The position numbers and the translations under genes were made by a program. DNA of 64,000 nt from Candidatus Norongarragalina meridionalis (lineage in GTDB: Archaea > Micrarchaeota > Micrarchaeia > Norongarragalinales > Norongarragalinaceae), in NCBI GenBank assembly GCA_902384935.1, contig CABMDO010000012.1, forward strand, positions 1-64,000, read 5' to 3'. The notes beneath the pieces are model-generated. The model searched no databases and was not told where the DNA came from. It saw only the letters and a program-made list of their open reading frames with translations. This document shows, one piece after another, positions 1 through 62,393 of this stretch. The number at the start of each line of letters is the position of its first letter. The stretch's first letter is position 1.

Positions 1-1030
1 GATGAAGGACTGCTAAAGGGCGGGAGTAACTCTGACTCTCTTAAGGTAGCGTAATACCTCGCCGCTTAATTGGCGGCTTGCATGAATGGCGTAACGAGCG
101 TCCCACTGTCCCTGCTTTGGACCTGGTGAACCTACTACTCAGTGAACATGCTGAGGACACTCAGAGGGAAACGAAGACCCCGTGGAGCTTAACCACAGTC
201 TGCTATTGGAACTCGGTTGACCGATCAAAGCGTAAGCAGTAGCCGCTACGTCCGCCCTTCCGGGGGCGGAATAGGCGAAAGTGTGACACTGCTATTGGTT
301 GACTGCGTTTCTTACCTGAAAGGGAACAGTGGCTGATGGGTGGTTTGACTGGGGCGGTACGCCTTCGATAAGAAAACAAAGGCGCCCAAAGTTCAACTCA
401 AGCCGGTCAGAAATCGGCTGCAGAGGGTCAAAGACAAATGTTGGACTGACTGTGATCCTAACAAAATGGGTCGCAGGCACGAAAGTGGGGCTTAACGAAC
501 AAAGGTGTCCCCCTTAATGGGGGCCCTTTCTGACAGACAAGCTACCCCGGGGGTAACAGGCTCGTCGCGTGCGAGAGTTCATATCGACCACGCGGTTTGG
601 TACATCGCTATCGGCTCAGGACATCCTGGTGGTGCAGGAGCCGCCAAGGGTTGGGTTGTTCATCCATTAAAGTCCTACGTTAGTTGGGTTCAGAACGTTG
701 CGAGACAGTTCGGTGGCATCTTCTGGGTGTGTTTTGCAGTGTGAGGGGAAGGAACTCTAAGTACGAGAGGAACGGGGTTTCGGCGCCACTGGTTTACCTG
801 CTCTCTACAGGGACGCAGGGTAGCTACGCGCCTTCGGATAAGTCCTGAAAGCATCTAAGGACGAAGCCGATCCCGAAACGACGCTGCTTAGGACGCCGGC
901 AAGCAGACCGGTTTGATAGGGCGGATGTGTAAGTACGAAGCCGCAAGGCGACGTATTCAGCTAACCGCCACTAAAGTCCAAACTTTGATTATTCCTACTG
1001 CGCGGGCGGTTTCGCCTGCGCAAGTGAATA
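1..1030 (+). rRNA. rrl: 23S rRNA, 3' ~1 kb (partial; 5' end lies outside the window)
   Basis: Conserved LSU motifs read directly: cttaaggtagcgtaatacctcgccgcttaattggcggcttgcatgaatgg, agaccccgtggagctt, ggttcagaacgttgcgagacagttcggt. The 3' end is estimated by alignment to the bacterial 23S terminus (gtgtaagtacgaagc ... gctaaccgcc), +-40 nt. Confidence 0.85.
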
Positions 1031-1105
1031 GGTTGTCTGACACCTGCACGGCCTGCGTATCGACACCGTCGGCGCACGAGCTAGTTTACTTGGTGATCGG
1101 CTTTC

Positions 1106-1453
1106 GTGTTCTCTAGTCTTTCTAACATTTTCGTTAAAATTGGACTTTTTCTAGTCAACAATCTAAAAATTTCTTCATTTTTTGCGCTAGTTCTTGCTTT
1201 TTTCACTTTTATGTTTATTCATTCCGCCGCTTTTTCTATGATCGGCTTGGGTCTAAACGCAGTCGGTTCATTTGTATTAATCAGTCCTTATCTCGAAGAT
1301 CCCAAAAAATCGGCCTATGCGTATGCTGCTCATATCGGCACAAATCCGCATGCAGAAGAACTTCAAAGGAAACAGAATCGCATCGGCATAACAGGCCTTT
1401 ATTATATTTTTATTGGTTTTCTGTTTCAATTAGCTGCATATCTGCCCCTCTGA
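1106..1453 (+). CDS. hypothetical membrane protein (low-GC island)
   Basis: 115-aa ORF with 3 hydrophobic segments. AT-rich relative to the rest of the window. First gene of a co-directional 3-gene island. Confidence 0.35.
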   Translation: MFSSLSNIFVKIGLFLVNNLKISSFFALVLAFFTFMFIHSAAFSMIGLGLNAVGSFVLISPYLEDPKKSAYAYAAHIGTNPHAEELQRKQNRIGITGLYYIFIGFLFQLAAYLPL

Positions 1454-1517
1454 CCGAGGTATCTCATTTTTTATAAGATCTGGTGGGGTTTTAAACCTAA
1501 GAAAATAAATCAAATTC

Positions 1518-2279
1518 ATGAGACTTCGAAAGATATTTTATTTTATTTATTGGATATTTCTAGTAGTTGCCGTTTTTGTGTCTGCTTTCAGTCCAGAAAA
1601 ATGTTCGCACGTAGCTGCTGTGAACTCTTGTTTGACGAGTGGCGGTCCTTTATGTCTAGCAATGCCATACTATCCTGAAGACGTCTTGCAAAATTTTGTT
1701 TCTAAAAAAGAGTTAGAACTAAATGATGCCTTTTATTACAAAATTCCCGTTTTCTATTCCGGACCGCTACCGATGGAAATTTATGTTACTGTCGTTTCTC
1801 CCAGCGGCGAAATACTTGATAACAATTCATATACTTTGAATACGACCAGTTCCGTTCTAGAACCTAGACTCATTGGAGATACCTTTTCGGCTTTTCAGAT
1901 TCAGGAATCGGGAGTCTATAAAATTATTTTAAATGGAAACTCCGCGCTGTATTTTATTAAGTTAGATAACACAACCTGCGGCTATTACAGCGGTTATGGC
2001 CAAATACTGTATAGTTTCGACGTTCTTTCTAGTTGGGAACGTAATTTCAGAAAAGCAATACGAGAAGCATCCGACACCTCCGTGGCGGCAGCTAACGAAT
2101 CTAGTAATACGCTGAAACAGGTGGCTAATATTCTAGAAAACGTAAAAAGTATTAACGAGCAAATGCTAACTTCTACCAGAAACGTGGAGTCCCTTACGAT
2201 TGTAGTAATTATTTTAACTTTATTCAATGTCCTAGTTGTCTGGATTTTAGAGCGTAGGCGGCGGAGGGGATACGAGTGA
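1518..2279 (+). CDS. hypothetical membrane-anchored extracytoplasmic protein (low-GC island)
   Basis: 253 aa with an N-terminal TM (IFYFIYWIFLVVAVFVSAF), an N-glycosylation-sequon-rich middle, and a C-terminal TM plus RRRRGYE. Low GC. Stop overlaps the next start (GTGA). Confidence 0.45.
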   Translation: MRLRKIFYFIYWIFLVVAVFVSAFSPEKCSHVAAVNSCLTSGGPLCLAMPYYPEDVLQNFVSKKELELNDAFYYKIPVFYSGPLPMEIYVTVVSPSGEILDNNSYTLNTTSSVLEPRLIGDTFSAFQIQESGVYKIILNGNSALYFIKLDNTTCGYYSGYGQILYSFDVLSSWERNFRKAIREASDTSVAAANESSNTLKQVANILENVKSINEQMLTSTRNVESLTIVVIILTLFNVLVVWILERRRRRGYE

Positions 2280-2611
2280 ACGAATTACGCGGAGTTGAAG
2301 ATGCTCTAAAAGACATCGCTAATAACACTAAGGATACTTGGCGAGATTCGGACCGTCGTAAAACGGTTTATCTTCAAGAAGAAATGATTAAACTACAGAT
2401 GGAAACGATTAAACAACAAGGAGAAACGGTTAAACTACAGGCAGAGATGGCTAAACAACAAGGAGAAACGGTTAAACTACAGGCAGAGATGGTTAAACTA
2501 CAAAACAAAACATGGCAAATATACGTTTTCTTGTGTATCCTGACTGCTATTTACGCGTTAGCCGCAGTAGCGCAAGTCTATGTAATGTTGTCTCAACCCA
2601 AAATAGTCTGA
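2276..2611 (+). CDS. coiled-coil protein with C-terminal TM anchor (contains a 14-aa tandem duplication)
   Basis: 111 aa. KQQGETVKLQAEMA/V is repeated twice (42-nt tandem repeat), followed by the hydrophobic tail IYVFLCILTAIYALAAVAQVYVML. GTG start overlapping the upstream stop. Confidence 0.45.
   Translation: MNELRGVEDALKDIANNTKDTWRDSDRRKTVYLQEEMIKLQMETIKQQGETVKLQAEMAKQQGETVKLQAEMVKLQNKTWQIYVFLCILTAIYALAAVAQVYVMLSQPKIV
2411..2494 (+). repeat. perfect 2 x 42-nt tandem repeat inside the coiled-coil ORF
   Basis: aaacaacaaggagaaacggttaaactacaggcagagatgg(c/t)t occurs twice back-to-back (1 mismatch). Coordinates +-2. Confidence 0.8.
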
Positions 2612-2752
2612 GCCTAGCTACGCAGGTTAAAGACGCAATTTGTCCTTGTGCTGGTTCAGAAAGAAGTATCAATCCATCAGCTTACCATCGCTCGTACCGT
2701 GGCGGCTCGTCCTCCTCAAGCAGCCGCTTCCTCTCCTTCTGCTTATGCCCCG

Positions 2753-3787
2753 CTATGGAAACGGACTAGGCGAGGGCGACGGACTGGGCAACGGAGATGC
2801 GCTTGGAGTCGGCGATGGAGAGGGACTCGGAACGGGCAGAATAACGCTGAATACCTCTTTCCATTCGCCCTGATTATTGCAGTAATCCTCTGCCTGAACG
2901 CCGAAGGAACAGTTTGCGCCGGCCGGAGAAAGTCCACTGAATGTGAAGTAGTTTGAAACTGCTAAGCTGTAAATTTGATTGTTTCCAGCGCATTGGTATC
3001 GTGTCCTGTACCACATTCCGCTTGGGTTCGGGCTGGGGTCTACCGCCGGCGCCCACATAAGGAAAACATAATCTTGTCCTATGTTGCTCTCGAGAATATT
3101 CCCCACGACTCCCGGCGGAGTCATGTCAACTCTGGCAATGTTCGAGTCGGGAGCTTCAAAATAACCAGAATCTCCATAATAGCAGCGTATGTTCCACAAA
3201 TAATTTGCCTCTGTAGAGAACGAGTAAGTGATGTGGTTTTCCTGGCCGTTCAGGATTTCCGAGGTGTTCCATTTGGTAACAGCCATGCTGCCCGTTTCGT
3301 TTGTAATCAATGAGCAGTTCCTAACCGTTATCCCATTGAAATAAGGAATGAACGAAAACACCTTGAACAAAGATGCGCACTCTCCGTATCCGAGTAGTGA
3401 AAGAGTGGGTTGAGCTGTGGGAGATGGGCTAATTATCGGACTAGGCGAAGGCGATGGAGACGGAATTACCGTTGGCGTAGGCGTTGGGGATGGCGACGGA
3501 CTCGATGAGGACGAAGGCGTCGGGGAAGGATTGGGTGAAGAAACTGGTAGTGGCGAGGGACTTGGTGACGAAGCGACGGATGGAGCAACAGATGCGGCGG
3601 GACTGGGAGATGCTAACGGCGCCGTTGTTGACTTGACTGTTGGTTGTACGCTAATCGTGGCTTGAAGCGAAGGTCCCGCGTCCACGGACGGAATGTCCGA
3701 AGATTCCACCACGGCTCCGGTTTTCTCGATACAACCAAAGAGCGCTAACGATAAAACGATTGTGAGAATCGCGAACTTGTTTTTCAT
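2753..3787 (-). CDS. secreted lipoprotein-type surface protein with Pro/Ser/Thr linkers
   Basis: 344 aa. N-terminus MKNKFAILTIVLSLALFGC (signal plus Cys lipobox-like). Long PSPSPSP/PTPTP linkers at both ends. Cys-containing globular core (YRTRYQCAGNN...). Confidence 0.6.
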   Translation of the reverse strand: MKNKFAILTIVLSLALFGCIEKTGAVVESSDIPSVDAGPSLQATISVQPTVKSTTAPLASPSPAASVAPSVASSPSPSPLPVSSPNPSPTPSSSSSPSPSPTPTPTVIPSPSPSPSPIISPSPTAQPTLSLLGYGECASLFKVFSFIPYFNGITVRNCSLITNETGSMAVTKWNTSEILNGQENHITYSFSTEANYLWNIRCYYGDSGYFEAPDSNIARVDMTPPGVVGNILESNIGQDYVFLMWAPAVDPSPNPSGMWYRTRYQCAGNNQIYSLAVSNYFTFSGLSPAGANCSFGVQAEDYCNNQGEWKEVFSVILPVPSPSPSPTPSASPLPSPSPSPSPFP

Positions 3788-3800
3788 TCAAATCACCGTT

Positions 3801-4358
3801 TCAATGCCTGCTTCTCGTCTTCGCAACCGTCGCGACTGGACGCGAAACCTTGTCTTTCCAAAGCGATCCCGTTAAAATCGTGTTGTTGTAAAGTATTCCC
3901 GCAGGGAACGACTGACGATAGTCACCGTATGCGTTCTGGTACGCAATGTAATGATATGCGACCCAGAGGCCGTCCATCAACCCGGTGTAGTCGCCCAAGT
4001 CCGTGAGGGTACCTGGATCCCAGTACTTGTTGCAATAATCTCCCAGCGTCATGTGGCCATAGCAGAAATCGCCAGGTTGCCACGGTCCGCAGCTTGGTCC
4101 CTTGAGGAGCTGGACGTTAATTCGGTGCAGAAGTATGAACTCCGTATAGAACTTGACGGTTTTGACGCAATAAATGCCGTTGTGAACTATGACCGCAGAG
4201 CCGCCTGCGTTAGGGATGAGATCGCTGATGGCGCAGGAATTGAAGGACATGTTTGTGGCGCTTCCCATGTTGTACGTTGCGAAGCACGGAACCGTAGTCA
4301 ACGCCGCAACACCCGCCGCAACGAACGCCAAACCAAGCAAAACAAAGCTAAATTTCAT
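3801..4358 (-). CDS. secreted Cys-rich protein
   Basis: Start taken at the internal Met MKFSFVLLGLAFVAAGVAALTT (signal peptide). The longer ORF-track N-terminus is Arg-rich junk. 6+ Cys and Tyr/Gly/Asp-rich C-terminal half. Confidence 0.5.
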   Translation of the reverse strand: MKFSFVLLGLAFVAAGVAALTTVPCFATYNMGSATNMSFNSCAISDLIPNAGGSAVIVHNGIYCVKTVKFYTEFILLHRINVQLLKGPSCGPWQPGDFCYGHMTLGDYCNKYWDPGTLTDLGDYTGLMDGLWVAYHYIAYQNAYGDYRQSFPAGILYNNTILTGSLWKDKVSRPVATVAKTRSRH

Positions 4359-4436
4359 CGAATCATCCCCAGATATTCGGGAGACTTCGGCGTTTAAATG
4401 TTGTCTGTGCGGGCGTAGTTTGGGTAGCGAGCGCAC

Positions 4437-4799
4437 CTAGGCGCCGCCCTTCCAGTGCGGCGGTTCTTCCTCCTCAAGAAGCGCCTTCCTCTCCTTCTCC
4501 TTCCGCTTCTTCCACGCCAGGTATCCTGCGACTGCGAGGACGCCAAACACCGCCGCGCCAAGGGTTATGATTTTGCCGTTCTCGCTTCGCGCGTAGGCGC
4601 CCTTCCAGACGCACATGCAGTAGTCGGGCGATTCTTTGTCAAGAACAAGCTCCATGGAACCGCATTCCTCCTGAATCTTCGGGCAGTAAAGCGAGCAGCT
4701 GGTTTCGTTGACTAAGGCGAACTCGTTCGGCGACGGAGGGCATGTCGCCGCGGCTGCGAACGAGGCGAAAAGCAGGAACGCGAAAACGCCGGCCTTCAT
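4437..4799 (-). CDS. small secreted, C-terminally membrane-anchored Cys protein
   Basis: 120 aa. Signal MKAGVFAFLLFASFAAAATC, 6 Cys, a TM (AAVFGVLAVAGYLAW), and a KKRKEKERK...EEEEPPHWKGGA tail. ATGA overlap with the upstream gene. Confidence 0.5.
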   Translation of the reverse strand: MKAGVFAFLLFASFAAAATCPPSPNEFALVNETSCSLYCPKIQEECGSMELVLDKESPDYCMCVWKGAYARSENGKIITLGAAVFGVLAVAGYLAWKKRKEKERKALLEEEEPPHWKGGA

Positions 4800-4800
4800 T

Positions 4801-5223
4801 TCATTCCCCGACGTCCTTTCTTACGGCCCTGCTGCTCGCTTCGCCGCCGAGCATTTTGGCGCCTTTTGCCCTCAGAGCATCACCGAGTTTGGCGAGTATT
4901 TTCCTGCCGTGCTCGTTCTTGGAAACGAGCGTGAAGTAAACGGGTCTGAACGAGTCGGATTCCCTGAATCCTGGCACGAAGAAGCTCATCGTTTCGATGT
5001 GGTTCTCGATTTCGAAGTGTTCCTCCAGAATCCTGTTGATTTTTGAGATCTCGTTAAGCATTCTTATTGTCTGGGCGGCGATGCGATGCCGGGGATCCGA
5101 CGTGTCCTTCGGAACGGGAAAATACATGTGGATGCCGGGGTTTTCGCCGCCAAATTCCACGAAGTGATGCAGCCCCCTCCCGATTATTTCCTTCGCGGCG
5201 GCTTCGTGGGCGTTCTCTCGCAT
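4801..5223 (-). CDS. hypothetical protein, paralog A of 6167..6640
   Basis: Aligns with the 6167..6640 product (RGLHHFVEFGG..MYFP vs RGLDHFVVEGG..LYFP; LAKLGDALRAKGAKML vs LGRLSKALEKAGVRKM). Start set at the Met where the alignment begins. Confidence 0.5.
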   Translation of the reverse strand: MRENAHEAAAKEIIGRGLHHFVEFGGENPGIHMYFPVPKDTSDPRHRIAAQTIRMLNEISKINRILEEHFEIENHIETMSFFVPGFRESDSFRPVYFTLVSKNEHGRKILAKLGDALRAKGAKMLGGEASSRAVRKDVGE

Positions 5224-5370
5224 AAGCAGACGTAATAGGCGCCGCCATATATTTGTTTTTCTAGGGATCGGGAGAGATAATATAAACAGCCCGCGGTTGC
5301 CCGTTCCGGAGCCGAGCAAACGCGTGGAAGCAATCGCAAGAAGAACGCCGAGGCGGTTTAAAAATATGCG

Positions 5371-5772
5371 TCAGTCGCGCGATTCAATCGTTATCCCGCC
5401 TTCCAGGAAGCAGATTCGGTGCTCGTCGAAGATTCCCTTCCTGCCGAGTATTACCCTGTCCAGTTTGTGCTTCGGAAGCAGGACTTCCACCTCGCAGATA
5501 ACCGGTTTTCCAACAACGTCCAGATTTACCGCGGCGGTGTAGCCGCTGATGCACTCGTCCCCGCATATTCCCGTGGAGTTCTTGGGCTCGCCGCCGAGCC
5601 GTATGCCCAGCATTTCGACAAGTTCGTACGGGAATATCGAGTTGTCCGCGCCGGAGTCGAGCAGCCCTTCGAGCTGGATTTGCCGTCCGTCCCTTCCTTC
5701 CGCCTTGAAGGCTATTACGGGGCGTTTGGTTCCATCCTCGACCCTGTACGGGAAAAAAACTTTAGCCAACAC
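5371..5772 (-). CDS. retropepsin-like aspartic protease (clan AA)
   Basis: Catalytic motif LLDSGADNSIFP with the GRKG/ILGR flap-like region. ~130-aa single domain. Probable GTG/TTG start, since the upstream part of the ORF is Arg/Gln junk. Confidence 0.55.
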   Translation of the reverse strand: MLAKVFFPYRVEDGTKRPVIAFKAEGRDGRQIQLEGLLDSGADNSIFPYELVEMLGIRLGGEPKNSTGICGDECISGYTAAVNLDVVGKPVICEVEVLLPKHKLDRVILGRKGIFDEHRICFLEGGITIESRD

Positions 5773-5780
5773 AAAGCCCC

Positions 5781-6101
5781 TCAGTAAAGGCAGACGGTGT
5801 CCATTTTTCTCGGAATCTTGGTGAGGAGCACGCTTTCCATGCCGACCTTCCCGACAAGCGAGCTCAGCTTCGCGCCGCTTTCCAAAACGCCCATTTTGCT
5901 GCCTTTCATGCCGACGGCTATCCACTTGCCCTTGTTTTGTTCCAGAAATCGGGGGTTTTCCGAGAGCCACCTGCTGGCTTCCCTGTAGTCGAATTGCCCG
6001 TTTTTGCCGTCCTTCATAACTGGTTCAGCCGGCGTCCGTATATATACGCTGCGCTCCGATTCGTCGTTTGTTGCCATGACGCCTTCATCGCGCCGCCGCA
6101 T
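5781..6101 (-). CDS. small protein with antitoxin-like signature (DUF5678-like; start possibly at 6077)
   Basis: RWLSENPRFLEQNKGKWIAV resembles the WL.EN...L...Y.GKWVA signature of small archaeal DUF5678-type proteins. Lies immediately upstream of the retropepsin-like gene. Confidence 0.4.
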   Translation of the reverse strand: MRRRDEGVMATNDESERSVYIRTPAEPVMKDGKNGQFDYREASRWLSENPRFLEQNKGKWIAVGMKGSKMGVLESGAKLSSLVGKVGMESVLLTKIPRKMDTVCLY

Positions 6102-6166
6102 TTAAGCCCGCCTAGACGCCTTCCTTCCAGTGCGGCGGTTCCTCTATGGAGCGAAAAAGCCGCGCT

Positions 6167-6640
6167 TCATCTATTTCCGCCCTTCGCCTTCCTCTTCGGC
6201 AATCCCTCGAGGAAGTCCTCGACTGCCCGCCGCCGCTCCTCGTCCCCGGCGCGCTTGATTTCCTCGTCGCGCGCTATCGCCCTGACGCCCTGCGTGGGGT
6301 TCATCTTCCGCACGCCGGCTTTCTCCAGCGCCTTGCTAAGCCGTCCGAGCAGTTCGCTTCCTCTCGGCGTAGCCGCGCTCAGCACCCCGTAAACCGGATG
6401 TTCGTCCTCCTTGTAGCCGAAGCGCACGATTCCCGCGTCGACGTGGTTGTCCGCCTCGAAGAAGCGGTCCAGCATCTCCTTGGCTTCGATTGTCATGGCG
6501 CGCGCCCGCGCCTCCTGGTCGCCGACGAGCGCGGGGAAATAGAGCTGGAGCGTGCCGCCTTCCACGACGAAGTGGTCCAAGCCGCGTTCCACGAGACGTT
6601 TGGCGACGCTTTCCATGAGAAACGTAATAAACTTCCGCAT
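6167..6640 (-). CDS. hypothetical protein, paralog B of 4801..5223
   Basis: See paralog A. The C-terminus KRKAKGGNR plus an out-of-frame tail (..EEPPHWKEGV) looks like a fused remnant of a 4437-type gene. Confidence 0.5.
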   Translation of the reverse strand: MRKFITFLMESVAKRLVERGLDHFVVEGGTLQLYFPALVGDQEARARAMTIEAKEMLDRFFEADNHVDAGIVRFGYKEDEHPVYGVLSAATPRGSELLGRLSKALEKAGVRKMNPTQGVRAIARDEEIKRAGDEERRRAVEDFLEGLPKRKAKGGNR

Positions 6641-6653
6641 ATATCTGCTTTTC

Positions 6654-7508
6654 ATGAAGATGACCGCCATCGGAAGGATACGTGACATCCCGAAATGGGC
6701 TCACCGCGGTGGTTTCGATCGTTTGTCCCCTGCCGAAAGACGGGAAGTTGTGGACGGCTACCGCATCGCGGTCGAGACGTTCGGCAGGCCGCGTTCCAAA
6801 GAGGAGGCGGCGGCGCAGGTCCGTGACCTGCTCAGCGCAACAGTGTTCCACTCCGTCTCTAAAAAACTCGTTATTTCGCCCTCGATTCCGAGGAAAAAGA
6901 CGCCGGATTTCCGCCGCAGGCTGTCCAAGGCGGTTTTCTCGCCTCGCGGCAAATTCGGTCCCGGCGGGACCGCATCGTCGAGCGGGCGAATACGGCTTTA
7001 TGATTTTACCGCGCCCACCGCCGCGCACGAGGGGGCGCACATCATCCTTCGCAACTATCTGGGCGAGCACGAGTTCCGGCCGCTTGCAACGGCAATCGAC
7101 GAGCTCGTGAGCTACCAACGGGACGAATTTTTCTCCTACCTTCCCTACGAGCTTTATTTGAAGAACAGCGTCGTCAGAAATCCCAGCAAATACGCAATAC
7201 AGCATTCGTCGGAAACCGGCAAAAAAAGAAAAGCGTACGCCGTCGGCAGGGGGATAGCGCTCGACGCCATTGAAATTCTGGAAGAACTGGGCGAGAACGG
7301 CAGGTACGCGCCCTACAATCTGGCGTACAAGTACGTCGGTTATCTGGCGAAGGGGCAGTCGCCGGCGCAGGCGCGGATCAGCGTGTTCTGGGATTTCGTA
7401 AAAGCGTTTCCCGACTCGCCGAAGGTTCGCGAGTACGTGCTGCCCGAAGTCGAACGAAGCAGCAAACTGCTCGCTGCGGTGGACCGCGAGCTGAAAAGGA
7501 AGCACTAG
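6654..7508 (+). CDS. hypothetical protein with an HEXXH zinc-peptidase-like motif
   Basis: Start at MKMTAIGRIRD, preceded by cgtaataaac/catatatc TATA-like elements. Motif AAHEGAHIILRNYLGEHEF. The opposite-strand 389-aa ORF is an Arg-rich artefact. Confidence 0.45.
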   Translation: MKMTAIGRIRDIPKWAHRGGFDRLSPAERREVVDGYRIAVETFGRPRSKEEAAAQVRDLLSATVFHSVSKKLVISPSIPRKKTPDFRRRLSKAVFSPRGKFGPGGTASSSGRIRLYDFTAPTAAHEGAHIILRNYLGEHEFRPLATAIDELVSYQRDEFFSYLPYELYLKNSVVRNPSKYAIQHSSETGKKRKAYAVGRGIALDAIEILEELGENGRYAPYNLAYKYVGYLAKGQSPAQARISVFWDFVKAFPDSPKVREYVLPEVERSSKLLAAVDRELKRKH

Positions 7509-7523
7509 TTATCCGCAAGCCTA

Positions 7524-7700
7524 TCAGCAGCGCTTGAAATCCGGCTTTCCGCAGTAGCAAACGGGTGCGCCGTTGTCGAACGCGTGCTTCGAGCAAACGG
7601 GGCGTCCGCAGGACGCGCAACGCCAGAACGCGGGCTGTTTGCAGAGTTCGCCGTCCTCGTCCTTTCCGTCGCAGTAAACGACTTTTTTATCCGATGTCAT
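7524..7700 (-). CDS. small Cys-rich zinc-ribbon protein
   Basis: MTSDKKVVYCDGKDEDGELCKQPAFWRCASCGRPVCSKHAFDNGAPVCYCGKPDFKRC (8 Cys). The upstream part of the ORF is His/Gly junk. Confidence 0.4.
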   Translation of the reverse strand: MTSDKKVVYCDGKDEDGELCKQPAFWRCASCGRPVCSKHAFDNGAPVCYCGKPDFKRC

Positions 7701-8032
7701 GAATTCTTCTCCTCCTTCGGCTTGGTCCACTTTCCTATGAAGTAAATCGCGGTGACCGCCATGACTGTAACCAGCACCGCCGCTATCATCTCGTACTGCC
7801 ATATGCCCGTAGTGGGTATGTACGTCTTTATCATGTCGCTGATGGCGCTCTGCCAAAAAAGCGCCGCAACCACTCCGAACGCCGTGGTGACAATGGTAAG
7901 CGTGCGCTCACGGAACGTGCGCTGGAATTCGGCGGCTGCCACCTTCCTCTCGCGCGCCGCATCCTCCTCGCGCGCTTTCAGGCGGCGCGCTCGCTCCCAC
8001 AATTCCCTGGGTATCGGCGGTCTCATGTTCAA
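7697..8032 (-). CDS. small membrane protein
   Basis: 111 aa with two TM helices (LTIVTTAFGVVAALFW; MIAAVLVTVMAVTAIYFIG). ATGA overlap with the downstream gene. Confidence 0.45.
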   Translation of the reverse strand: MNMRPPIPRELWERARRLKAREEDAARERKVAAAEFQRTFRERTLTIVTTAFGVVAALFWQSAISDMIKTYIPTTGIWQYEMIAAVLVTVMAVTAIYFIGKWTKPKEEKNS

Positions 8033-8070
8033 AGGAAGTGCTTGCGGGTTTATTAAATATTCAGAGTCTC

Positions 8071-8640
8071 TTACCCGCGGCTTATCTCGTACGTAAACTC
8101 GCCTTCCTCGTGCTTCGCTCCTGCGAGCTTCGCCGCCTTTCTGATTTCCCCTTCGATGGGCGCCGTTTTCGCCATGTCCTCGACCGACCTGTACGGCAGG
8201 TCGCGGATTACCGCTTTCGAAATGAATAGCTTGTATCCGTTTTCCATGACTATCGTCCTTATCAGGTGCTCCAGCGCCCGCTGCCTCCAGCCGCTGTATT
8301 TCCTCGCGAGCGTCGGGGAAAGGAATCCCGCGCCGTTCCCTTTCTTGAAGTGCGATTGGGCTATTTGCAGGACCGCCAAATCGCCCTTTGAGGTGAGCGT
8401 CACCCTGACGGTTCCGACGGCGCCGGGATAATCCTTCGAAGGTCCGCCCGGCTTCAAGCCGGTAATCGCCTTCAGGAAAGCCTCCTCGTGCTCGGGTTTC
8501 GGGTAAACGACTATGTCGAACCAGTTCCCCCTTTCGGGCGCGTACGGCATCACCACAGTCATCTTCGGGCTTTCGAGCACGCGATAGGCGGTTTTCCTGA
8601 TTCTTTCGAGGTTGGGCGCCATATTCCGATATGGGCGCAA
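8071..8640 (-). CDS. hypothetical protein
   Basis: 189-aa ORF with ordinary composition and no recognisable motif. Confidence 0.45.
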   Translation of the reverse strand: MRPYRNMAPNLERIRKTAYRVLESPKMTVVMPYAPERGNWFDIVVYPKPEHEEAFLKAITGLKPGGPSKDYPGAVGTVRVTLTSKGDLAVLQIAQSHFKKGNGAGFLSPTLARKYSGWRQRALEHLIRTIVMENGYKLFISKAVIRDLPYRSVEDMAKTAPIEGEIRKAAKLAGAKHEEGEFTYEISRG

Positions 8641-8656
8641 TGCATTAAATATATAC
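8641..8656 (+). promoter_or_regulatory. TATA/BRE-like promoter element upstream of 8673
   Basis: gcattaaatatatacg lies ~20-30 nt upstream of the ATG. Confidence 0.4.
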
Positions 8657-8672
8657 GCGCGGTTCCATTTTC

Positions 8673-10892
8673 ATGCCCGATGCCGCGAAACCGAAGCGCG
8701 ATCTGCGCACCGACGTCAAGAAAGCCGTCGGCGGACTGTACGGGCAGAAGGCGGACAAGGGCTACCACTACGAGGAGAAGAAGGAGAGCTTCGCGCCCCC
8801 GGCGTTCGTAAATATCACCTATTCGCTCGCGAAAATATTCAAGTCCTTCGGCAAGGGCGCTAAATTCACGCAGGACCAGGAGGACGCCATCGGATTCCTC
8901 GGCTGGAACATAACCGCCGAGCAGTTCTACGCCGCCTACAAGGGCTTGTTCATGGGCGGCATCGCGGTCGGAGTGCTGCTCGCCGCCCTCGTGTACATGC
9001 TGGCGCCGCTCGACGATACGCTGAAAATAGGGCTCGCCGGAGTTTTCCTTCTTGTTCCGATAGGAGTCAGCTACTTCTACCTGAAGTATCCGCACAGCGC
9101 GGTTGAGCGCGAGAAAATGCTCGCTCTTGCGTATATTCCCGAAATAGTGAACTATCTCACGATGAGCATGCGGCTCACCCCGAACCTCGAGAAGGCTGTA
9201 CAGTTCGCGGCGAACCACGGGCGCGGGAAAATCGCCGAGGACATGAAGAAAATCGTGTGGGACGTGCAAATCGGGAGATACGCGAGCATCGAGGAAGGAC
9301 TCGACGAACTCGCATACCGATGGGGTGGCTACAACGAGGACTTCAAGCACGCGCTGATGCTCATCCGCTCGTCCGTGCTGGAAGGGAACCGCGAACGCCG
9401 CGAAGAACTGCTCGAAAAAGCAGGAACCGACGTGCTCGAAGGCACCAAGGAAAAGATGGACATGTACGCGCGCAAGCTCCACCAGCCCACGGTTTATCTT
9501 TATTATTTCGGAATCCTGCTTCCGCTGCTGCTCGCCATAATTCTTCCCATCGGCGGGAGCATGAGCGGCATGCCTCTCGCGAAAGCGGAGTACATGTTCG
9601 TCGCGTACAACCTCGTGATTCCGCTCATCGTCTATTTGTTCGGCTCGAACATCGTTGCGGGCAAGCCGCCGACGTATACGCCGCCGGACATTCCGCCAGA
9701 CTTTCCCGGTTTGCCGCCGAGGGGCATTGCGAGGGTATTCGGCATCAGCATGCCTTTCCGCATATTCGCGCTGCTGATAATCACCTGCTTCATAGGCGGG
9801 GGCTATTTTACCGACCAGGGCGTTACGCAGAACGCCATCAACTCAGTCGTAGTCCCGCTGAACACGTTCATGACCGACAGCTTCGGTATGCCCATCACCG
9901 GGCCGCAGGGCATCGTGATTCCTGGAACGCTGGGGCAGATTCCGTCATACGCGGTGTTCGAGGACGAGAAGGCGAAGCTGCCGCGCATAACCTTCTTCGA
10001 CCAGTACGGCGAGATCATAGGAGAATTCACGATTTTCGGCTTCCTGCTGGGCATATCCATCTCCGTCAGCGTCTATCTGCTCGGAGAGTACGGAGAGCGG
10101 CTGCGCGTCCAGCGCGAAATAAGGGACATGGAAGGCGAGTTCAAGGATGCGATGTACGTGCTGGCGTCGCGCATGGGCGAGAATAAACCTATAGAGGAAG
10201 CATTGCGCAGCGCCGTCGTCTTCCTGCCCAAGAGCAGAATCGCCAAGGATGTGTTCAAGCGCATCCTCGAGAACATCACGACTATGGGCATGACTTTGGA
10301 CGCCGCCATATTCGACGAAACGTTCGGCGCTTTGAAGAATCTTCCGTCGAGGACTATACGGAGCGGCATGCAGTTCCTCGTAGATTCCGTGGAGTTGGGC
10401 GTTAACGTGGCGGCGAAATCGCTGATTTCGCTTTCGCTGCAGCTCAGGAACGCGCAGAAAATCGACGAGTCTTTGCGGAAGCTTCTCGAAGACGTGACAA
10501 CCATGCTCAGCACGATGTCCACGTTCGTCGCGCCCATCGTCCTCGCGGTTGTCAGCGCCATGCAGCGGCTCATCATGAATTCCATCGCAGGCTCCGCGGG
10601 CACGGAAACAACCCAGCAGAGCGCGCCGGGCGTGTCGGGATTCGGCGGGATGACGAACCTGTTCGCGAACAAGGACGTGGTGAAGAACAGCGCGGACCCC
10701 GCGACTTTCGTGCTCATCATGGGCGTCTACGTGATAGAGGTGGTGACGCTTCTCACGTATTTCAACTCGCAGATAGAGGATACGGGAAACAAGCTGCACA
10801 CGTACGTGAGCATCGCGAAGTCCCTGCCCACCGCCGTCGTTCTTTACTGCGTCGTCGTCTATTTCGCGAGCAGTTCCCTCGGGGTGTCCTGA
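8673..10892 (+). CDS. FlaJ/TadC/PilC-like polytopic membrane protein with two T2SS-F (GspF) domains
   Basis: 739 aa with multiple TM blocks. Cytoplasmic domains LEKAVQFAANHGRGKIAEDMKKIVWDVQIGRYASIEEGLDELAYRWGG and KDAMYVLASRMGENKPIEEALRSAVVFLPKS...LDAAIFDETF match the T2SSF fold repeated twice. Confidence 0.6.
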   Translation: MPDAAKPKRDLRTDVKKAVGGLYGQKADKGYHYEEKKESFAPPAFVNITYSLAKIFKSFGKGAKFTQDQEDAIGFLGWNITAEQFYAAYKGLFMGGIAVGVLLAALVYMLAPLDDTLKIGLAGVFLLVPIGVSYFYLKYPHSAVEREKMLALAYIPEIVNYLTMSMRLTPNLEKAVQFAANHGRGKIAEDMKKIVWDVQIGRYASIEEGLDELAYRWGGYNEDFKHALMLIRSSVLEGNRERREELLEKAGTDVLEGTKEKMDMYARKLHQPTVYLYYFGILLPLLLAIILPIGGSMSGMPLAKAEYMFVAYNLVIPLIVYLFGSNIVAGKPPTYTPPDIPPDFPGLPPRGIARVFGISMPFRIFALLIITCFIGGGYFTDQGVTQNAINSVVVPLNTFMTDSFGMPITGPQGIVIPGTLGQIPSYAVFEDEKAKLPRITFFDQYGEIIGEFTIFGFLLGISISVSVYLLGEYGERLRVQREIRDMEGEFKDAMYVLASRMGENKPIEEALRSAVVFLPKSRIAKDVFKRILENITTMGMTLDAAIFDETFGALKNLPSRTIRSGMQFLVDSVELGVNVAAKSLISLSLQLRNAQKIDESLRKLLEDVTTMLSTMSTFVAPIVLAVVSAMQRLIMNSIAGSAGTETTQQSAPGVSGFGGMTNLFANKDVVKNSADPATFVLIMGVYVIEVVTLLTYFNSQIEDTGNKLHTYVSIAKSLPTAVVLYCVVVYFASSSLGVS

Positions 10893-10893
10893 G

Positions 10894-11394
10894 TTGATGA
10901 AGGGTGCGGTAAAGGAAACCGCGCAGTTCCTGGCGCTCTTCCTTTTCGTTGCAATACCCGTATATTTCGTGCTGGGATTTTTCGCCGCATCCTTTTCGGA
11001 AATAGCGGCATATTCCTCGCAAGTAATGCTGAACGCGGCAGGAGTGCGCACGTCCATTACTCTCGAAAACGGCGTCGCACATGTCATTTCTCCGTCTTTC
11101 GACGCCGAAATCGGCGATTTGTGCTGGGGGCGAGTGGAAATAGCCGTGCTTGCGGGAATAGTGATGGCAAGTTGGGACAGAACCGTGCGGCGAAGAATCG
11201 AGGGCATTATTCTCGGAATCGCCGTGCTTCTGGTGCTTAATCCCGTCAGAATCGCCGTTTCTCTCGCCGTCTACGACCCGCAGAACCCGCAGGCGTCTGC
11301 GCTGTTCCACGACGTTTTGTTCAGGGCTACGCTGGTAATCGTTTTGGTAGCCTACTACGCAGTATGGTATTACTGGCTGTCGAAGCGCCGTTAA
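10894..11394 (+). CDS. 4-TM membrane protein, possible exosortase/archaeosortase-family core
   Basis: 166 aa. Cys-Arg-Asn candidates in DAEIGDLCWGRVEIAVLAG and ...LVLNPVRIAV are reminiscent of the exosortase/archaeosortase triad. Immediately follows the FlaJ-like gene with a TTG start. Lacks the GGADVK motif of A24 prepilin peptidases. Confidence 0.35.
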   Translation: MMKGAVKETAQFLALFLFVAIPVYFVLGFFAASFSEIAAYSSQVMLNAAGVRTSITLENGVAHVISPSFDAEIGDLCWGRVEIAVLAGIVMASWDRTVRRRIEGIILGIAVLLVLNPVRIAVSLAVYDPQNPQASALFHDVLFRATLVIVLVAYYAVWYYWLSKRR

Positions 11395-11789
11395 CTCGCT
11401 TTTCCCTTTTCGATGTTCAGCTTCGCGCGCGGCAGGTTTATCGGCGCGCCGATTCCGAGCGTGAACGCGAGAAGCGTTCCGACGGATGCGGCGGAATAGC
11501 TGATGGCGTTGAGCACGTCCTCGGCGAACTCGGAGGCGAGGAACTTCTTTTCCTTCCAGCCTTCGAGAATCTCCTTGCGCACCTTGGCGTCCTCCTGTAT
11601 GATGATGTCGCCCTTTATGACGAGCTCGGCGACTTCGTCCTGATAATCCGTCTTGTGAGTGTACGAGACCAGAAGCGCCCCTTCCTCCTCCTTGACGCTG
11701 GTTATGTCTATGTTCACGTTCAGCCCCTTGACCGCGCCGTCCTTGAGCCTCTTCGCGCTGGCTTCCGTGATTCTTCCGCCTAGTATCAT
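11391..11789 (-). CDS. hypothetical conserved-looking protein divergent from ftsZ
   Basis: 132 aa, alpha/beta-like composition (VKGLNVNIDITSVKEEEGALLVSYTHK...). SepF-like function is pure speculation. Confidence 0.4.
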   Translation of the reverse strand: MILGGRITEASAKRLKDGAVKGLNVNIDITSVKEEEGALLVSYTHKTDYQDEVAELVIKGDIIIQEDAKVRKEILEGWKEKKFLASEFAEDVLNAISYSAASVGTLLAFTLGIGAPINLPRAKLNIEKGKAS

Positions 11790-11991
11790 TAAACCACCCT
11801 CCTAGTGAAAGATTTTCCGAAAACGCCTTTATATTGCTTCCGAGAGAGCGTGCCTTTTATATGGCGCGCGGGTTCGGCGCGCCGTGCAGCCGCGTAAACA
11901 AAACCTTTTTAATTCGGGGGAGGGTTTTCCTTTCACTAGTGATATTCGAAGGGGAGCAGGTGATTGTGTGGAAGATTTGGTAAACGAGGCT

Positions 11992-13056
11992 ATGCGGTCT
12001 AGAAGTTCCAGGAAACAGCAGCAGGACTCCAGCGACTTCAAGTTCGAAACCCCCAAGCTTATGGTGGTGGGCGCGGGCGGCGCGGGATGCAACTCCATCA
12101 ACCGCCTCGCGAAGGCGGGCATCAAGGGCGCGGAATTAATCGCCATCAACACGGACAAGCTCCATCTTACGACGATATCCGAGAGCGCGAAGAAGGTGCT
12201 CATCGGAGCGAGCATAACGCGCGGATTGGGCGCTGGCGGCTATCCCGAGATAGGCGCGAAGGCAGCCGAAGTATCCCGCGAAGCGCTCGAGAAGATGTTC
12301 GACGGCGCGGACTTGGTGTTCCTCACCGCAGGCATGGGAGGAGGAACCGGTACGGGCTCGGCCCCGATTCTCGCGGAAATCGCGAAGAAGCAGGGCGCGA
12401 TCGTAATCTCGATAGTCACATACCCGTTCGCGCTCGAGCGCGCCCGCCTCGAAAAAGCAGACCAGGGCCTTGAGGCACTGAAGGCGCAGGCGGACACCAT
12501 AATCGTAATCGACAACAACAGGCTCGTCGAAATCGTTCCGAGCCTTCCGATAGACAAGGCGTTCAACGTCGCGGACGAGATTATAGCGCGCGCAGTTCGC
12601 GGAATCGCCGAGACCATTACTACGCCTTCACTCATCAACCTCGATTTCGCCGACGTGCGCGCCGTAATGAGCAACGGAGGCGTTTCGATGATCGCCGTCG
12701 GAGAAGCGAAGGGCACCAACCGCGCGGAGGAAGTAGTGAACAACACGCTACACCACGCGCTGCTCGACGTGGATTACACCGGCGCGACGGGAGTGCTGCT
12801 GCACATCACCGGAGGCCCGGACATGACGCTAGGCTAGTGCAACCAAATCGGCGAGGCGCTTACGGAACGCGTCGATCCGAACGCCACGGTTATATGGGGC
12901 GCCCGCGTCGATCCGACGTTCGAGGGCAAGATAGAGGCGATTGCCATATTCACGGGCATCCAGTCGCCGTACGTCCTCGGAAAAACGGTTCGCGGAGTCG
13001 GCGGCGCGCCGAACAAGAGGCGCGAGGAAGGGTTCGACGACGTCGACTTCCTTTAA
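11992..13056 (+). CDS. ftsZ: cell division GTPase FtsZ, interrupted by an in-frame TAG at 12835-12837 (readthrough, pseudogene or error)
   Basis: GAGGAGCNSINRL and the tubulin signature MGGGTGTGSAP. The ORF stops at TAG after ..HITGGPDMTLG, but the same frame continues with CNQIGEALTERVDPNATVIWGARVDPTFEGKIEAIAIFTGI...DDVDFL and ends TAA at 13054-13056, which is the conserved FtsZ C-terminal domain. Start could be GTG 11968 or ATG 11992. Confidence 0.75.
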
Positions 13057-28348: not shown

Positions 28349-28422
28349 AGCCTCCGATGGGATTCGAACCCACGACTTCGTGCTTACCATGCACGCACTC
28401 TACCAGGCTGAGTTACAGAGGC
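28349..28422 (-). tRNA. tRNA-Thr (anticodon GGU)
   Basis: Reverse complement gcctctgtaactcagcctggtagagtgcgtgcatggtaagcacgaagtcgtgggttcgaatcccatcggaggct. 7-bp acceptor, TTCGAAT T-loop, anticodon loop aUGGUaa. CCA not encoded. Confidence 0.8.
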
Positions 28423-28749: not shown

Positions 28750-28853
28750 GCAGGGGTGGCTGAGTTTGGCCAAAAGCGGGGGACTTAAGAGGCGGGAACG
28801 CCTGCGAAATCCCCTCCCTTAGGGGTTCGGGAGTTCAAATCTCTCCCCCTGCA
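28750..28853 (+). tRNA. tRNA-Leu (anticodon UAA) with a ~19-nt intron 3' of the anticodon
   Basis: Acceptor gcagggg/cccctgc, D stem gct/agc, anticodon stem gggga...tcccc with loop cUUAAga interrupted by aggcgggaacgcctgcgaa. Long variable arm (tcccttaggggttc). T arm gggag-ttcaaat-ctctc. Confidence 0.7.
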
Positions 28854-60866: not shown

Positions 60867-61656
60867 AATAAAAACTTGCCCGCGTATATATAAAAACGTG
60901 CTTAAAATCGCCTTCGGCGAAGCCGCCGCGAGCCTCGGAAAAACGCTCATAGTTGCGGACCTTCACCTCGGCATCGAACTCGAACTTCGAGCCCGCGGCA
61001 TAAACGCGAGGCAGCAGTGGCATCCTTGCGCGGTTCGCATAAACAAGCTGCTGAAGAAAATGAAATGCGGCAGCCTCGTGATTCTGGGCGACGCCAAGCA
61101 CGACGTCTACGGCTGCGACATCGAAGAGCGCACGATGATGAGGCGTTTCCTCGACAGCCTCGACACCAAGGACGTGCGCATCATAAAAGGAAACCATGAT
61201 TCCCTGCTCGAAGGCGTCGCGCCCATTATTCCCGCTACGGGCATGCGCATCGAAGACGGGGGCGAGTCCTACGGTCTGTTCCACGGGCATGCGTGGCCCG
61301 CCAAGGACGTGCTCGCAGCCGACATTTTTCTCATGGCGCACCAGCATCCCATGTACGAATTCAAGGACAAAGCCGGCAGATGGAGCGAGAAATGCTGGAT
61401 TTCGGCCGAAACAAAAGCCAATAAGCGGTTCGGAGTAATGGGGAAGCGCAGGGTTGTCGTCTTTCCGGCATTCGGCATTCTTTCCGGAGGCATTCGCCTA
61501 AATGCCGAAAAAGGAATCGGCCCGTTCTTCGAAAATCCGCTCCTGCGCAAGGCGACGGCATTCTCGCTCGAAGGCGCGCCCCTGGGTGCACTAAGCGTTA
61601 GCCGCCCGAAACCTTATACTGTTCTTTATACTTCTTTTCCGGAGGATATTTTTTAA
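60856..61656 (+). CDS. calcineurin-like metallophosphoesterase
   Basis: ..LIVADLHLG...ILGDAKHDVYG...IIKGNHD...GHAWP... (metallophosphatase motifs I-V). The C-terminal 22 codons run into the cassette insertion. Confidence 0.65.
   Translation: MSAIIKTCPRIYKNVLKIAFGEAAASLGKTLIVADLHLGIELELRARGINARQQWHPCAVRINKLLKKMKCGSLVILGDAKHDVYGCDIEERTMMRRFLDSLDTKDVRIIKGNHDSLLEGVAPIIPATGMRIEDGGESYGLFHGHAWPAKDVLAADIFLMAHQHPMYEFKDKAGRWSEKCWISAETKANKRFGVMGKRRVVVFPAFGILSGGIRLNAEKGIGPFFENPLLRKATAFSLEGAPLGALSVSRPKPYTVLYTSFPEDIF
61531..61588 (+). repeat. direct repeat copy 1 (~56 bp) of the phosphoesterase 3' end
   Basis: aaaatccgctcctgcgcaaggcgacggcattctcgctcgaaggcgcgcccctgggt matches the copy at 62327..62382 with 4 mismatches. 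Coordinates +-3. Confidence 0.8.
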
Positions 61657-62326
61657 TTAGTTTAGAAAGATCCTTCGTTACAAATTCGTCCTTCCGTCCG
61701 AACGGCCATATGCTCCTCTTTTTTCTAATCCACCAGTCTCCGAATCCACCTACCGGAGCCTGCCCACCGCATACCAAAAAATGCCCTTTTTTCTTCAAAA
61801 TTTTATTTATTTTTGTGTAAAAACTATCTGTACCCAGCTCCGCTTCGCCGTATTGTGCGGCGCCGGAACGAGAAAGTATCAAATCATACTGTTTGTTCTT
61901 TTTCACTAGCGAATCTATGGTTCCTATATGCAGATAGTCCAAATGATTTTTTGCATTACCGTACCTTTGCGAAGGGATGTTTGTAAGCGTCAGCCCCTCA
62001 ACTTCCGCATTTATTCCTTCATCATGAAGCAGTTTACGCAGCTCTATTGCCGCAATTCCGGCACCGCAACCTAAATCCAGTATCCTTATTGGCTTGCCTT
62101 TCTGCCGACGCATTATGCCTCTTGCCAACTCCAAAAGATTTCCGAAATCATGCATGTAGCAGACGAGATCCCTTTTCGAATTGTATGAAGCGTATGCGAA
62201 CTGAACCGGCGACTCGCGATCCTCTTTCCTTCCTTTCCAAATTGTTGATGCTAGCTCTTTCCTGTATTTCTTCTCATTTTCCGACCGCCTTTCTACCATA
62301 TAGAAATAATAATGAGCCATAACTTT
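61589..62326 (-). mobile_element. low-GC single-gene cassette (methyltransferase) flanked by ~56-bp direct repeats
   Basis: ~740 bp, AT-rich, containing only ORF 61598..62320. Lies between the convergent phosphoesterase and TraB-like genes. No recombinase. Confidence 0.5.
61598..62320 (-). CDS. class I SAM-dependent methyltransferase (cassette cargo)
   Basis: Motif I ILDLGCGAGIAAIEL. 240 aa, low GC. Confidence 0.65.
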   Translation of the reverse strand: MAHYYFYMVERRSENEKKYRKELASTIWKGRKEDRESPVQFAYASYNSKRDLVCYMHDFGNLLELARGIMRRQKGKPIRILDLGCGAGIAAIELRKLLHDEGINAEVEGLTLTNIPSQRYGNAKNHLDYLHIGTIDSLVKKNKQYDLILSRSGAAQYGEAELGTDSFYTKINKILKKKGHFLVCGGQAPVGGFGDWWIRKKRSIWPFGRKDEFVTKDLSKLIKKYPPEKKYKEQYKVSGG

Positions 62327-62382
62327 AAAACCCGCTCCTGCGCAAGGCGACGGCTTTCTCGCTCGAAGGCGCGCCGCTGGGC
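62327..62382 (+). repeat. direct repeat copy 2 (~56 bp), the probable original phosphoesterase 3' end
   Basis: aaaacccgctcctgcgcaaggcgacggctttctcgctcgaaggcgcgccgctgggc continues in frame to ..SLKL plus TAG (62395-62397), overlapping the convergent TraB-like stop (cTAg). Confidence 0.8.
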
Positions 62383-62393
62383 TCGCTCAAGCT

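Follow-up and report, generated by a model that had tools for sequence, protein, structure and literature searches.

How did a short, strongly AT-rich gene cluster come to lie at the 3' flank of the ribosomal RNA (rRNA) operon of a GC-rich archaeal genome? The question is raised by the first 64,000 nucleotides of contig CABMDO010000012.1 of Candidatus Norongarragalina meridionalis (forward strand; this whole stretch is hereafter the window), in which a 23S rRNA gene is followed by three open reading frames (ORFs) in DNA of quite different composition. LFW-144_1, the host's metagenome-assembled genome (MAG), belongs to the Micrarchaeota (DPANN), was recovered from groundwater and comprises 0.93 Mb in 49 contigs at 57.5% GC (PMC8561730). 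The reading that we favour, with somewhat more confidence than doubt, is that the patch is a horizontally acquired, replaceable islet of membrane or surface genes at the rRNA flank. A horizontal origin is preferred because of the base composition and codon usage of the patch, the phyletic pattern of its second gene (ORF2), the absence of its genes from a close relative (contig L063) and the breakpoint shared with that relative. In this model, positions ~1100-2690 would be a small 'flexible' islet of foreign AT-rich DNA.

The 3' third of an archaeal 23S rRNA gene occupies positions 1-993 of the plus strand (Rfam LSU_rRNA_archaea, 894 bits, model positions 1988-2987), its 5' end being cut off by the window start, which is probably the contig start too. 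It is followed at 994-1100 (+) by an rRNA-operon trailer with a GC content of 0.61, delimited by blastn and MAFFT comparison with L063 and conserved with it up to ~1080. In 200-nt windows, GC content then drops from 0.545 (901-1100) to 0.34 (1101-1300) and stays between 0.31 and 0.43 to ~2600. The sharp fall after the 23S gene, noted in the initial annotation, was borne out by this sliding-window analysis, but it starts at ~1100 rather than at 1040, as 994-1100 is GC-rich trailer. Over 1100-2640, GC content is 0.385 versus 0.581 ± 0.022 in all other 1540-nt windows (z about -9), and the lowest value among those others is 0.477. On the right side, the return to ~60% GC at ~2640 is less clean than had been described: GC content is 0.545-0.585 at 2600-2900, averages 0.52 over 2753-4436 and is stably typical of the genome only from ~4400. 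The second-lowest GC stretch of the window lies at 61000-63000 (~0.50-0.51, with the minimum of 0.477 in the 1540-nt window at 61600); it holds an orphan ORF besides one that resembles class-I methyltransferases (61598-62320, minus strand).

The patch is tiled by three co-directional ORFs on the plus strand, ORF1 (1106-1453), ORF2 (1518-2279) and ORF3 (2276-2611), whereas its minus strand holds short ORFs only; hydropathy assigns transmembrane (TM) helices to the products, so that the earlier description of three membrane or coiled-coil genes stands. Their GC content at third codon positions (GC3) is 0.31, 0.36 and 0.35, respectively, versus 0.65-0.8 in convincingly coding native ORFs, and all three show the pattern of GC1 above GC2 and GC3 that is seen in real AT-rich genes (0.47/0.34/0.31 in ORF1). 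The suspected deviation in codon usage was likewise observed: the relative synonymous codon usage (RSCU) of ORF1-3 is anti-correlated with that of 38 native ORFs (r = -0.42), and it correlates positively (r = +0.46) with that of AT-rich archaeal contigs bearing ORF2 homologs. Base composition and codon usage thus both deviate in the manner used to recognize genomic islands.

The flank was also compared with those of related rRNA operons. JGI metagenome contigs were scanned with a 19-mer from the 3' domain of the 23S gene and gave 56 loci, among which only L063 and L027 are archaeal relatives; the rest are distant and mostly 70-85% identical over short stretches. L027 (85.6% identical) stops 56 nt past its 23S gene and is uninformative on the flank. 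L063 (Ga0066637_10011143, 5.9 kb) contains a complete archaeal 23S gene, which is 98.2% identical to the window over 1-556 and 94.2% identical over 583-1079. Homology extends across the trailer as far as window position 1079, a co-linear 10-nt block, TAGTCTTTCT (window 1114-1123), is still common to both past the end of the trailer alignment, and thereafter there is none. After the breakpoint, L063 is AT-rich as well (GC 0.40-0.45, GC3 0.36-0.43) and encodes a 302-amino-acid (aa) orphan on the other strand, a TrkA_C-like ORF of 91 aa and an ORF of 69 aa; no DNA or protein similarity of this downstream region to the patch or to the next 5 kb of the window was found. Two closely related rRNA operons carry different AT-rich cargo from the same breakpoint. 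The initial annotation had set against its own proposal the case that relatives keep the same low-GC genes in the same place. This is not what was found, as L063, the sole close relative recovered, has none of ORF1-3; absence from close relatives, a further mark of genomic islands, is accordingly seen in one relative only. From one and the same point in the trailer, the window and L063 part into unrelated AT-rich genes, which may point to a common slot; the L063 contig ends before its right flank.

Two features of L063 bear on the composition of its host. The spacer upstream of its 23S gene has a GC content of 0.58, and the LAGLIDADG ORF of an intron within that gene has a GC3 of 0.67 and an RSCU that correlates with the native genes of the window (r = +0.55), which indirectly suggests that the host of L063 is GC-rich like the window genome. 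Given this spacer, the native-like codons of the intron ORF and the trailer GC of 0.61, each of the two rRNA operons appears to be native to a genome rich in GC. The LAGLIDADG ORF lies in one of two insertions (L063 2981-3801, corresponding to window 556-585) that are absent from the window 23S gene: the first, of ~673 nt, encodes a 191-aa homing endonuclease (Pfam LAGLIDADG_3, E 1e-14), and the second, of ~118 nt, lies 30 nt further on. Both are probably rRNA introns. As for TAGTCTTTCT, its copy in L063 lies at ~4331-4340, overlapping the stop codon with which the 302-aa ORF ends on the minus strand; the block could be a functional 3' element of the rRNA operon or a scar of an ancestral arrangement.

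Evidence on the nature of the genes themselves comes from ORF2 (1518-2279, +), a protein of 253 aa whose sequence matches at 100% identity an 'Uncharacterised protein' that NCBI records for Ca. Norongarragalina meridionalis. Its N-terminus is a signal peptide or TM helix (3-27), after which come a Cys-containing segment, a beta-rich ectodomain at ~70-165 (from AlphaFold2 (AF2) secondary structure), a long helix or coiled-coil stalk (172-220), a TM helix (221-247) and an RRRRRGYE tail; AF2 draws 172-251 as one helix. The prediction is thus of a stalked surface protein with type-I anchoring. A word-index search of 5.8 billion proteins returned ORF2 itself as the sole match. On the other hand, an exhaustive HMMER search of 1.84 billion representatives gave, besides spurious repeat-protein matches, six ORF2-like proteins of 258-390 aa with the same architecture and 23-29% identity (library-wide E 8e-7 to 8e-4 as single sequences; the best 29% identical over comparable architecture). 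A back-translated scan of GTDB, with one genome for each species, contributed three more, from Altiarchaeales WOR_SM1_SCG, Ca. Aenigmarchaeum subterraneum and an Aenigmatarchaeota MAG, and over the full alignment ORF2 is 19-24% identical to the members of the family. All 10 sequences have the layout of signal peptide, beta-domain, helix and TM, and eight residues are invariant among them and intact in ORF2 (D70, F72, Y74, P95, G132, Y134, D168 and W173), in the motifs (V)GDxFxYxI, NP, GxYK and FDxMPxW. As a guard against coiled-coil and TM composition artefacts, a profile was built from the nine other members without ORF2, and only residues 56-180 were scored: ORF2 obtained 45.6 bits (E 6e-13 with 2001 sequences in the database), whereas the best of 2000 shuffles reached 7.9 bits. 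ORF2 is taken to be a real gene because it is a 253-codon ORF in AT-rich DNA, keeps the eight invariant residues and has a beta-domain that scores 45.6 bits. The family is real and uncharacterised; it was found here only in archaea, and its three named members are DPANN.

Within the shared plan of signal peptide, beta-domain, coiled coil and C-terminal TM, family members range from 233 to 390 aa and differ from ORF2 in several details. Many have a CxxxxxCxxC segment, whereas ORF2 is without that Cys spacing; VGD of the family motif is LND in ORF2; and some members carry extra C-terminal TM helices beyond the ORF2 layout. None of the members reaches a Pfam gathering score: DUF7507 is matched in 2/10 (best E 0.046) and DUF11 in 1/10 (E 0.063). 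ORF2 itself matches neither DUF7507 nor DUF11, so that beta-sandwich domains of the CARDB/DUF11 type are no more than faintly hinted at, and in a few members only. A profile search of the PDB with the family alignment yielded nothing significant (best E 0.03). The AF2 model of ORF2, built from 7 sequences, was rejected as evidence of fold, since its predicted local distance difference test (pLDDT) score of 57.9 supports a secondary-structure outline only; Foldseek comparison of the model with the PDB gave no match at E<=0.001, and matches to the Hsp70 substrate-binding domain (TM-score ~0.15) were discarded. A SNARE-type domain was not found in ORF2 either, with Sec20 best at E 0.36 and SNAP-25 chains only at E ~0.6 in the PDB profile search, and the likeness of ORF2 and ORF3 to SNAREs is limited to a generic coiled coil beside a C-terminal TM.

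The contigs on which ORF2-family genes lie are informative for the origin of the patch. L001-L006 are all AT-rich (GC 0.29-0.40), and together with codon usage and the absence of the genes from L063, this supports the part of the initial annotation that called the patch horizontally acquired. We infer that the genes were gained from outside, most likely from an AT-rich archaeon or its mobile element. The gene appears to have a solitary habit: the neighbours of nine family genes show no similarity to ORF1 or ORF3, and a conserved three-gene module was rejected after comparison of these nine loci, ORF2 alone being conserved.

ORF1 and ORF3 present a different picture, and it is here that a native origin has to be considered, in which lineage-specific, fast-evolving or de novo genes would owe their AT-richness to weak expression, weak selection or youth. 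No homologs of ORF1 were found in the search of 5.8 billion proteins, and all start versions of ORF1 are absent from the protein collection. ORF3 is likewise absent from it and gives only sub-threshold coiled-coil matches in Pfam and PHROG (DUF16, 20.9 bits versus a cutoff of 40). More generally, scans of ORF1-3, their neighbours and the downstream ORFs of L063 against Pfam, NCBIfam, PHROG and PADLOC returned nothing above threshold, the matches being coiled-coil or low-complexity noise. The initial annotation had also set ordinary conserved genes against its proposal; here ORF1 and ORF3 are orphans, and ORF2 has distant homologs only (19-29%). It is common for orphan genes to be richer in AT than the core set. 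The neighbouring genes at 2753-4436 are orphans too, with a GC content in between, as in a possible gradient of young genes, and a recent duplication of 42 nt in ORF3 speaks for ongoing evolution in situ. This explanation fits ORF1 and ORF3 but not ORF2, whose family also occurs in Altiarchaeales, in Aenigmarchaeota and on further AT-rich contigs of archaea, and whose invariant residues are intact. Moreover, a GC drop of 20 points with anti-correlated codons is hard to obtain under a GC-rich mutational bias, and L063 is without these genes. A native origin of the whole patch is thus considered quite unlikely.

Several points weigh against horizontal acquisition, and they are considered together here. 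No donor with a close homolog was found, so that transfer is deduced from composition and phyletic pattern only. There is one informative relative only, and the contig of L063 ends inside its AT-rich stretch with the right flank unseen. ORF1 and ORF3, being without homologs, could be spurious or very young, and the function of ORF2 is predicted from a weak model (AF2 pLDDT 57.9, insignificant fold matches). Furthermore, no integrase, transposase, conjugation or viral genes turned up when ORF1-3 and the ORFs around them were scanned with Pfam, PHROG and PADLOC; no direct repeats of at least 10 nt link both borders as attachment (att) sites would; and no tRNA lies near the patch. The only repeat near the right border, 2701-2740/4459-4498, is the relic of a paralog (described below) and not an att site. 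Insertion by a site-specific element, as the word 'insertion' in the initial annotation implied, was therefore not supported by the att-site check. Among the features by which genomic islands are known, mobility genes and flanking att repeats are lacking, whereas adjacency to a structural RNA gene is present, the patch starting ~110 nt past the 23S 3' end, after the trailer. Homologous recombination on the rRNA operon, or illegitimate insertion, is favoured over site-specific integration because mobility machinery and att sites are absent.

The same observations bear on whether the patch is what remains of a decayed virus, plasmid or other integrated element that has lost its integration module and kept a few membrane-protein genes. 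Small AT-rich membrane or coiled-coil genes without homologs are typical of archaeal viruses. In addition, several ORF2-family genes lie in mobile-element-rich neighbourhoods beside toxin-antitoxin or defence genes: NERD, TIR and Schlafen-AlbA in L001, HEPN AbiV in L003, PIN in L005 and L009, and NTase/HEPN with VapBC in the Altiarchaeales contig L007. This suggests that the family resides in variable, defence-type neighbourhoods. However, the Ca. Aenigmarchaeum copy lies in a stretch without toxin-antitoxin or defence-like ORFs, its neighbours having been read by eye only and not scanned. No relatives of the ORF2 family, ORF1 or ORF3 were found in IMG/VR; a tblastn search with ORF2 of 50,697 phage records and a blastn search with the islet DNA of plasmids gave no match; and the PHROG matches are coiled-coil noise. 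Since capsid, integrase, replication gene and att repeat are all absent as well, descent of the patch from such an element is very improbable.

The remaining points that weigh against acquisition concern the assembly. No 23S gene is listed for the MAG, for which 16S and 5S genes are reported (PMC8561730), so the 23S fragment lies at a contig end, and the patch falls within 2.7 kb of that end, a classic place for chimeras. The first ~2.6 kb, that is, the 23S fragment with the AT-rich genes, might thus have been joined in assembly or binning from another, AT-rich organism. The GC change near 2640-2690 is abrupt, L063 with its nearly identical 23S gene also turns AT-rich up to its contig end, and genomes of the Norongarragalinales span 36.5-59% GC, so that the order does include AT-rich members (PMC12892359). 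An independent assembly of the region was not retrieved: five exact-protein look-ups for four annotated proteins of the contig returned nothing, and three proteins of the contig form singleton clusters at 90% identity. Against a chimera, however, stand the GC-rich trailer and the GC-rich upstream spacer of L063, the drop beginning only after the trailer, as well as the native-like codon usage of the L063 LAGLIDADG gene. Across the putative join, ORF3 is complete, the 344-aa ORF on the other side reaches its stop codon and the convergent spacer between them is normal. No repeat that could mislead an assembler is present at 2560-2700, the sole repeat matching the same contig, and AT-rich sister genomes should show some synteny, of which there is none with L063. 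A chimeric origin is therefore regarded as unlikely.

If the patch was acquired, the site may be a replaceable slot whose content is swapped by homologous recombination, with the conserved rRNA operon as one arm, in a manner comparable to hypervariable region 2 (HVR2) of SAR11. HVR2 is AT-enriched, hypervariable, devoted to the cell surface and bounded by the 23S gene, and its authors propose rRNA genes as recombination anchors (PMC2217521, PMC3448164). The patch resembles it in lying directly after the 23S gene, in being AT-richer than the genome, in encoding envelope or membrane proteins (predicted ones here) and unknowns, and in having no clear att site (PMC2217521, PMC3448164). HVR2 is a conserved site whose content differs between strains; the variation seen here comes from one relative whose right flank is unseen. 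As to surface cargo, TM anchors are predicted for each of the products, and an export signal and an ectodomain for ORF2, but no enzymes of envelope biosynthesis are encoded. The differences are considerable. HVR2 extends over ~48 kb with ~50 genes, as opposed to 1.5 kb here (3.3 kb with the layer of intermediate GC); it contains mostly lipopolysaccharide and glycosylation enzymes together with an integrase, whereas the patch has no enzymes and an archaeal host; and it has a 5S gene on its far side, whereas none is found here.

Other known systems are less close. Flexible or 'metagenomic' islands of the archaeal cell surface, such as the cell-wall island of Haloquadratum walsbyi, are of atypical composition, carry secreted or membrane-anchored unknowns and are associated with antiviral diversification of the surface. 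Such islands are tens of kb long and were defined from population data, that is, recruitment gaps and many variants, whereas the patch is compared here with one relative. Integrase-type islands at tRNA or tmRNA genes share with it the atypical GC content, the adjacency to a structural RNA gene and the absence from a close relative, but the patch has no integrase, direct repeats or tRNA target and is far below their typical size. AT-rich orphan islets are in themselves common and will not surprise specialists; what is additional here is the possible hotspot at the rRNA flank and the undescribed archaeal family.

A further-reading proposal is that the 3' flank of the single rRNA operon in Norongarragalina-like Micrarchaeota is a dedicated recombination slot for the exchange of AT-rich cassettes of surface and membrane proteins between cells, with the operon as homology arm, a miniature archaeal HVR2, and that the ORF2 family is a DPANN-wide stalked surface protein, maybe for host attachment or virus evasion, that moves among co-habiting DPANN; as a whole, this is quite unlikely, and we offer it as speculation. 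According to a published study, horizontal transfer is inferred to have shaped the metabolism of Norongarragalinales (PMC12892359). If the islet is real, even a DPANN genome of 0.93 Mb keeps a slot beside the rRNA operon for imported membrane proteins of fast turnover. Such organisms may rely on contact between cells, and their surface proteins are then obvious candidates for recognizing hosts and resisting viruses. The ORF2 family provides a testable surface-protein candidate common to several archaeal lineages, the named ones being DPANN. Because the MAG contig opens within a 23S gene and the patch is close to that end, possible chimerism has to be considered before the locus is used in statistics of horizontal transfer or pangenomes.

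The absence of a 5S gene after the 23S gene, which the initial annotation had pointed out, was verified. No 5S or other Rfam family was found at 950-13000, even at E<=1, and besides the 23S gene only two tRNAs, near 28.4-28.9 kb, reach the gathering score in the 64 kb. An archaeal rRNA operon with a linked 5S gene is thus not seen downstream of the 23S gene. Unlinked 5S genes are common in archaea. For this reason, and because a 5S gene is reported for the MAG (PMC8561730), elsewhere than in the window, the absence is no anomaly, and it carries no information on the origin of the islet.

The internal organization of the patch suggests two transcription units, in which ORF1 would be transcribed alone and ORF2 together with ORF3. 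The left edge (1101-1210, +), read directly from the sequence, is T-rich with a GC content of 0.29 and several T5-T7 runs; by analogy with archaeal oligo-T termination, it probably contains terminators of the rRNA operon and the promoter of ORF1. ORF1 (1106-1453, +) is a small polytopic membrane protein, judged from the ORF list and hydropathy, with two or three hydrophobic helices. Its candidate starts are GTG 1106 (115 aa), ATG 1211 (80 aa) and ATG 1238 (71 aa), and it is the least certain gene call of the three. In the spacer between ORF1 and ORF2, a direct reading of 1467-1495 (+) shows a T6 run (1467-1472) and two boxes, TTTATAA (1470-1476) and TTTAAA (1490-1495). The centre of the second box (~1492.5) is ~26 nt upstream of the ORF2 ATG (1518), which suggests that the TTTAAA box is the promoter of ORF2 and that the mRNA is leaderless.

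At the junction of ORF2 and ORF3 (2263-2279, +), the motif GGAGGGG (2263-2269) stands 6 nt before the ORF3 GTG, and stop and start codons overlap in GTGA (2276-2279), so that the two genes are probably translationally coupled. ORF2 would be exported and held by its C-terminal helix, with the beta-rich domain displayed on the helical stalk at the cell surface. ORF3 (2276-2611, +; 111 aa) begins with a coiled coil of heptad repeats and has its only TM helix near the C-terminus (79-106), the predicted layout of a tail-anchored protein. It contains an array of about six 21-nt (7-codon) units at 2361-2507 (+), for which Tandem Repeats Finder gives periods of 21 and 42. Within this array, a repeat search and an exact-repeat check place an exact 41-nt repeat at 2410-2450 and 2452-2492. 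The 42-nt tandem duplication described earlier is therefore present, but it is not perfect (41/42 identical) and is part of the longer 21-nt array. The heptad array may grow by slippage.

The right edge of the islet (2612-2690) is a non-coding spacer of rising GC between ORF3 and convergent, native-type genes on the minus strand. Immediately beyond it, at 2691-2837 (-), blastn-short, tblastn and frame translation identified a decayed paralog relic of the gene for a 120-aa membrane protein (4437-4799, -). The relic, which straddles the nominally intergenic 2612-2752 and the last part of the 344-aa ORF, spans the TM and cytoplasmic tail and corresponds to 4437-4580 (-), with KQKERKRLLEEDEPP in the relic versus KEKERKALLEEEEPP in the 120-aa protein (41% over 49 aa with an in-frame stop, tblastn); at the DNA level, 2701-2740 matches 4459-4498 with 87.5% identity over 40 nt (E 1e-5, blastn-short). 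The end of the 344-aa ORF overlaps the relic in another frame, and a similar EEPPHWK tail recurs at 6118-6189 (-). This suggests that the GC-rich side is an array of small, paralogous, surface-anchored proteins with a common C-terminal tail, duplicated and decayed up to the islet edge. The relic marks a past rearrangement at the right border of the islet and fits a plastic region.

The interval before the 120-aa gene (2753-4436, -) holds two secreted or membrane orphan genes, of 344 aa and 211 aa, with a GC content of 0.52 and GC3 of 0.52 and 0.63. Their RSCU correlates with that of native genes at r = 0.46 only, and the pair may represent an earlier layer of this variable region. The 344-aa protein has Ser/Pro-rich linkers and a lipobox-like LFGC and forms a singleton cluster in a collection of 15 billion proteins; the 211-aa protein has an N-terminal TM. 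Farther along lie more orphans, and at 8673-11394 (+) a multi-TM orphan of 739 aa is directly followed by a 166-aa gene of the exosortase/archaeosortase family (10894-11394; TIGR04178, 40.9 bits versus a cutoff of 23), and these may be a surface-protein processing pair near the variable region. At 55017-60950 (-), a giant ORF of 1977 aa with CarboxypepD_reg, Big_1 and SpaA-like Ig-fold repeats probably encodes a large cell-surface protein.

Two minor observations were made elsewhere in the window. Rfam calls a tRNA of 104 nt at 28750-28853 (+) with 44 bits, its length implying an intron, while ARAGORN (bacterial/linear mode) reports only a tRNA-Thr at 28349-28422. The FtsZ ORF (11884-12837, +) is just 317 aa long, and its FtsZ_C match ends at profile position 51/95; the protein may be a short form, or a frameshift or an incorrectly called start may be the cause.

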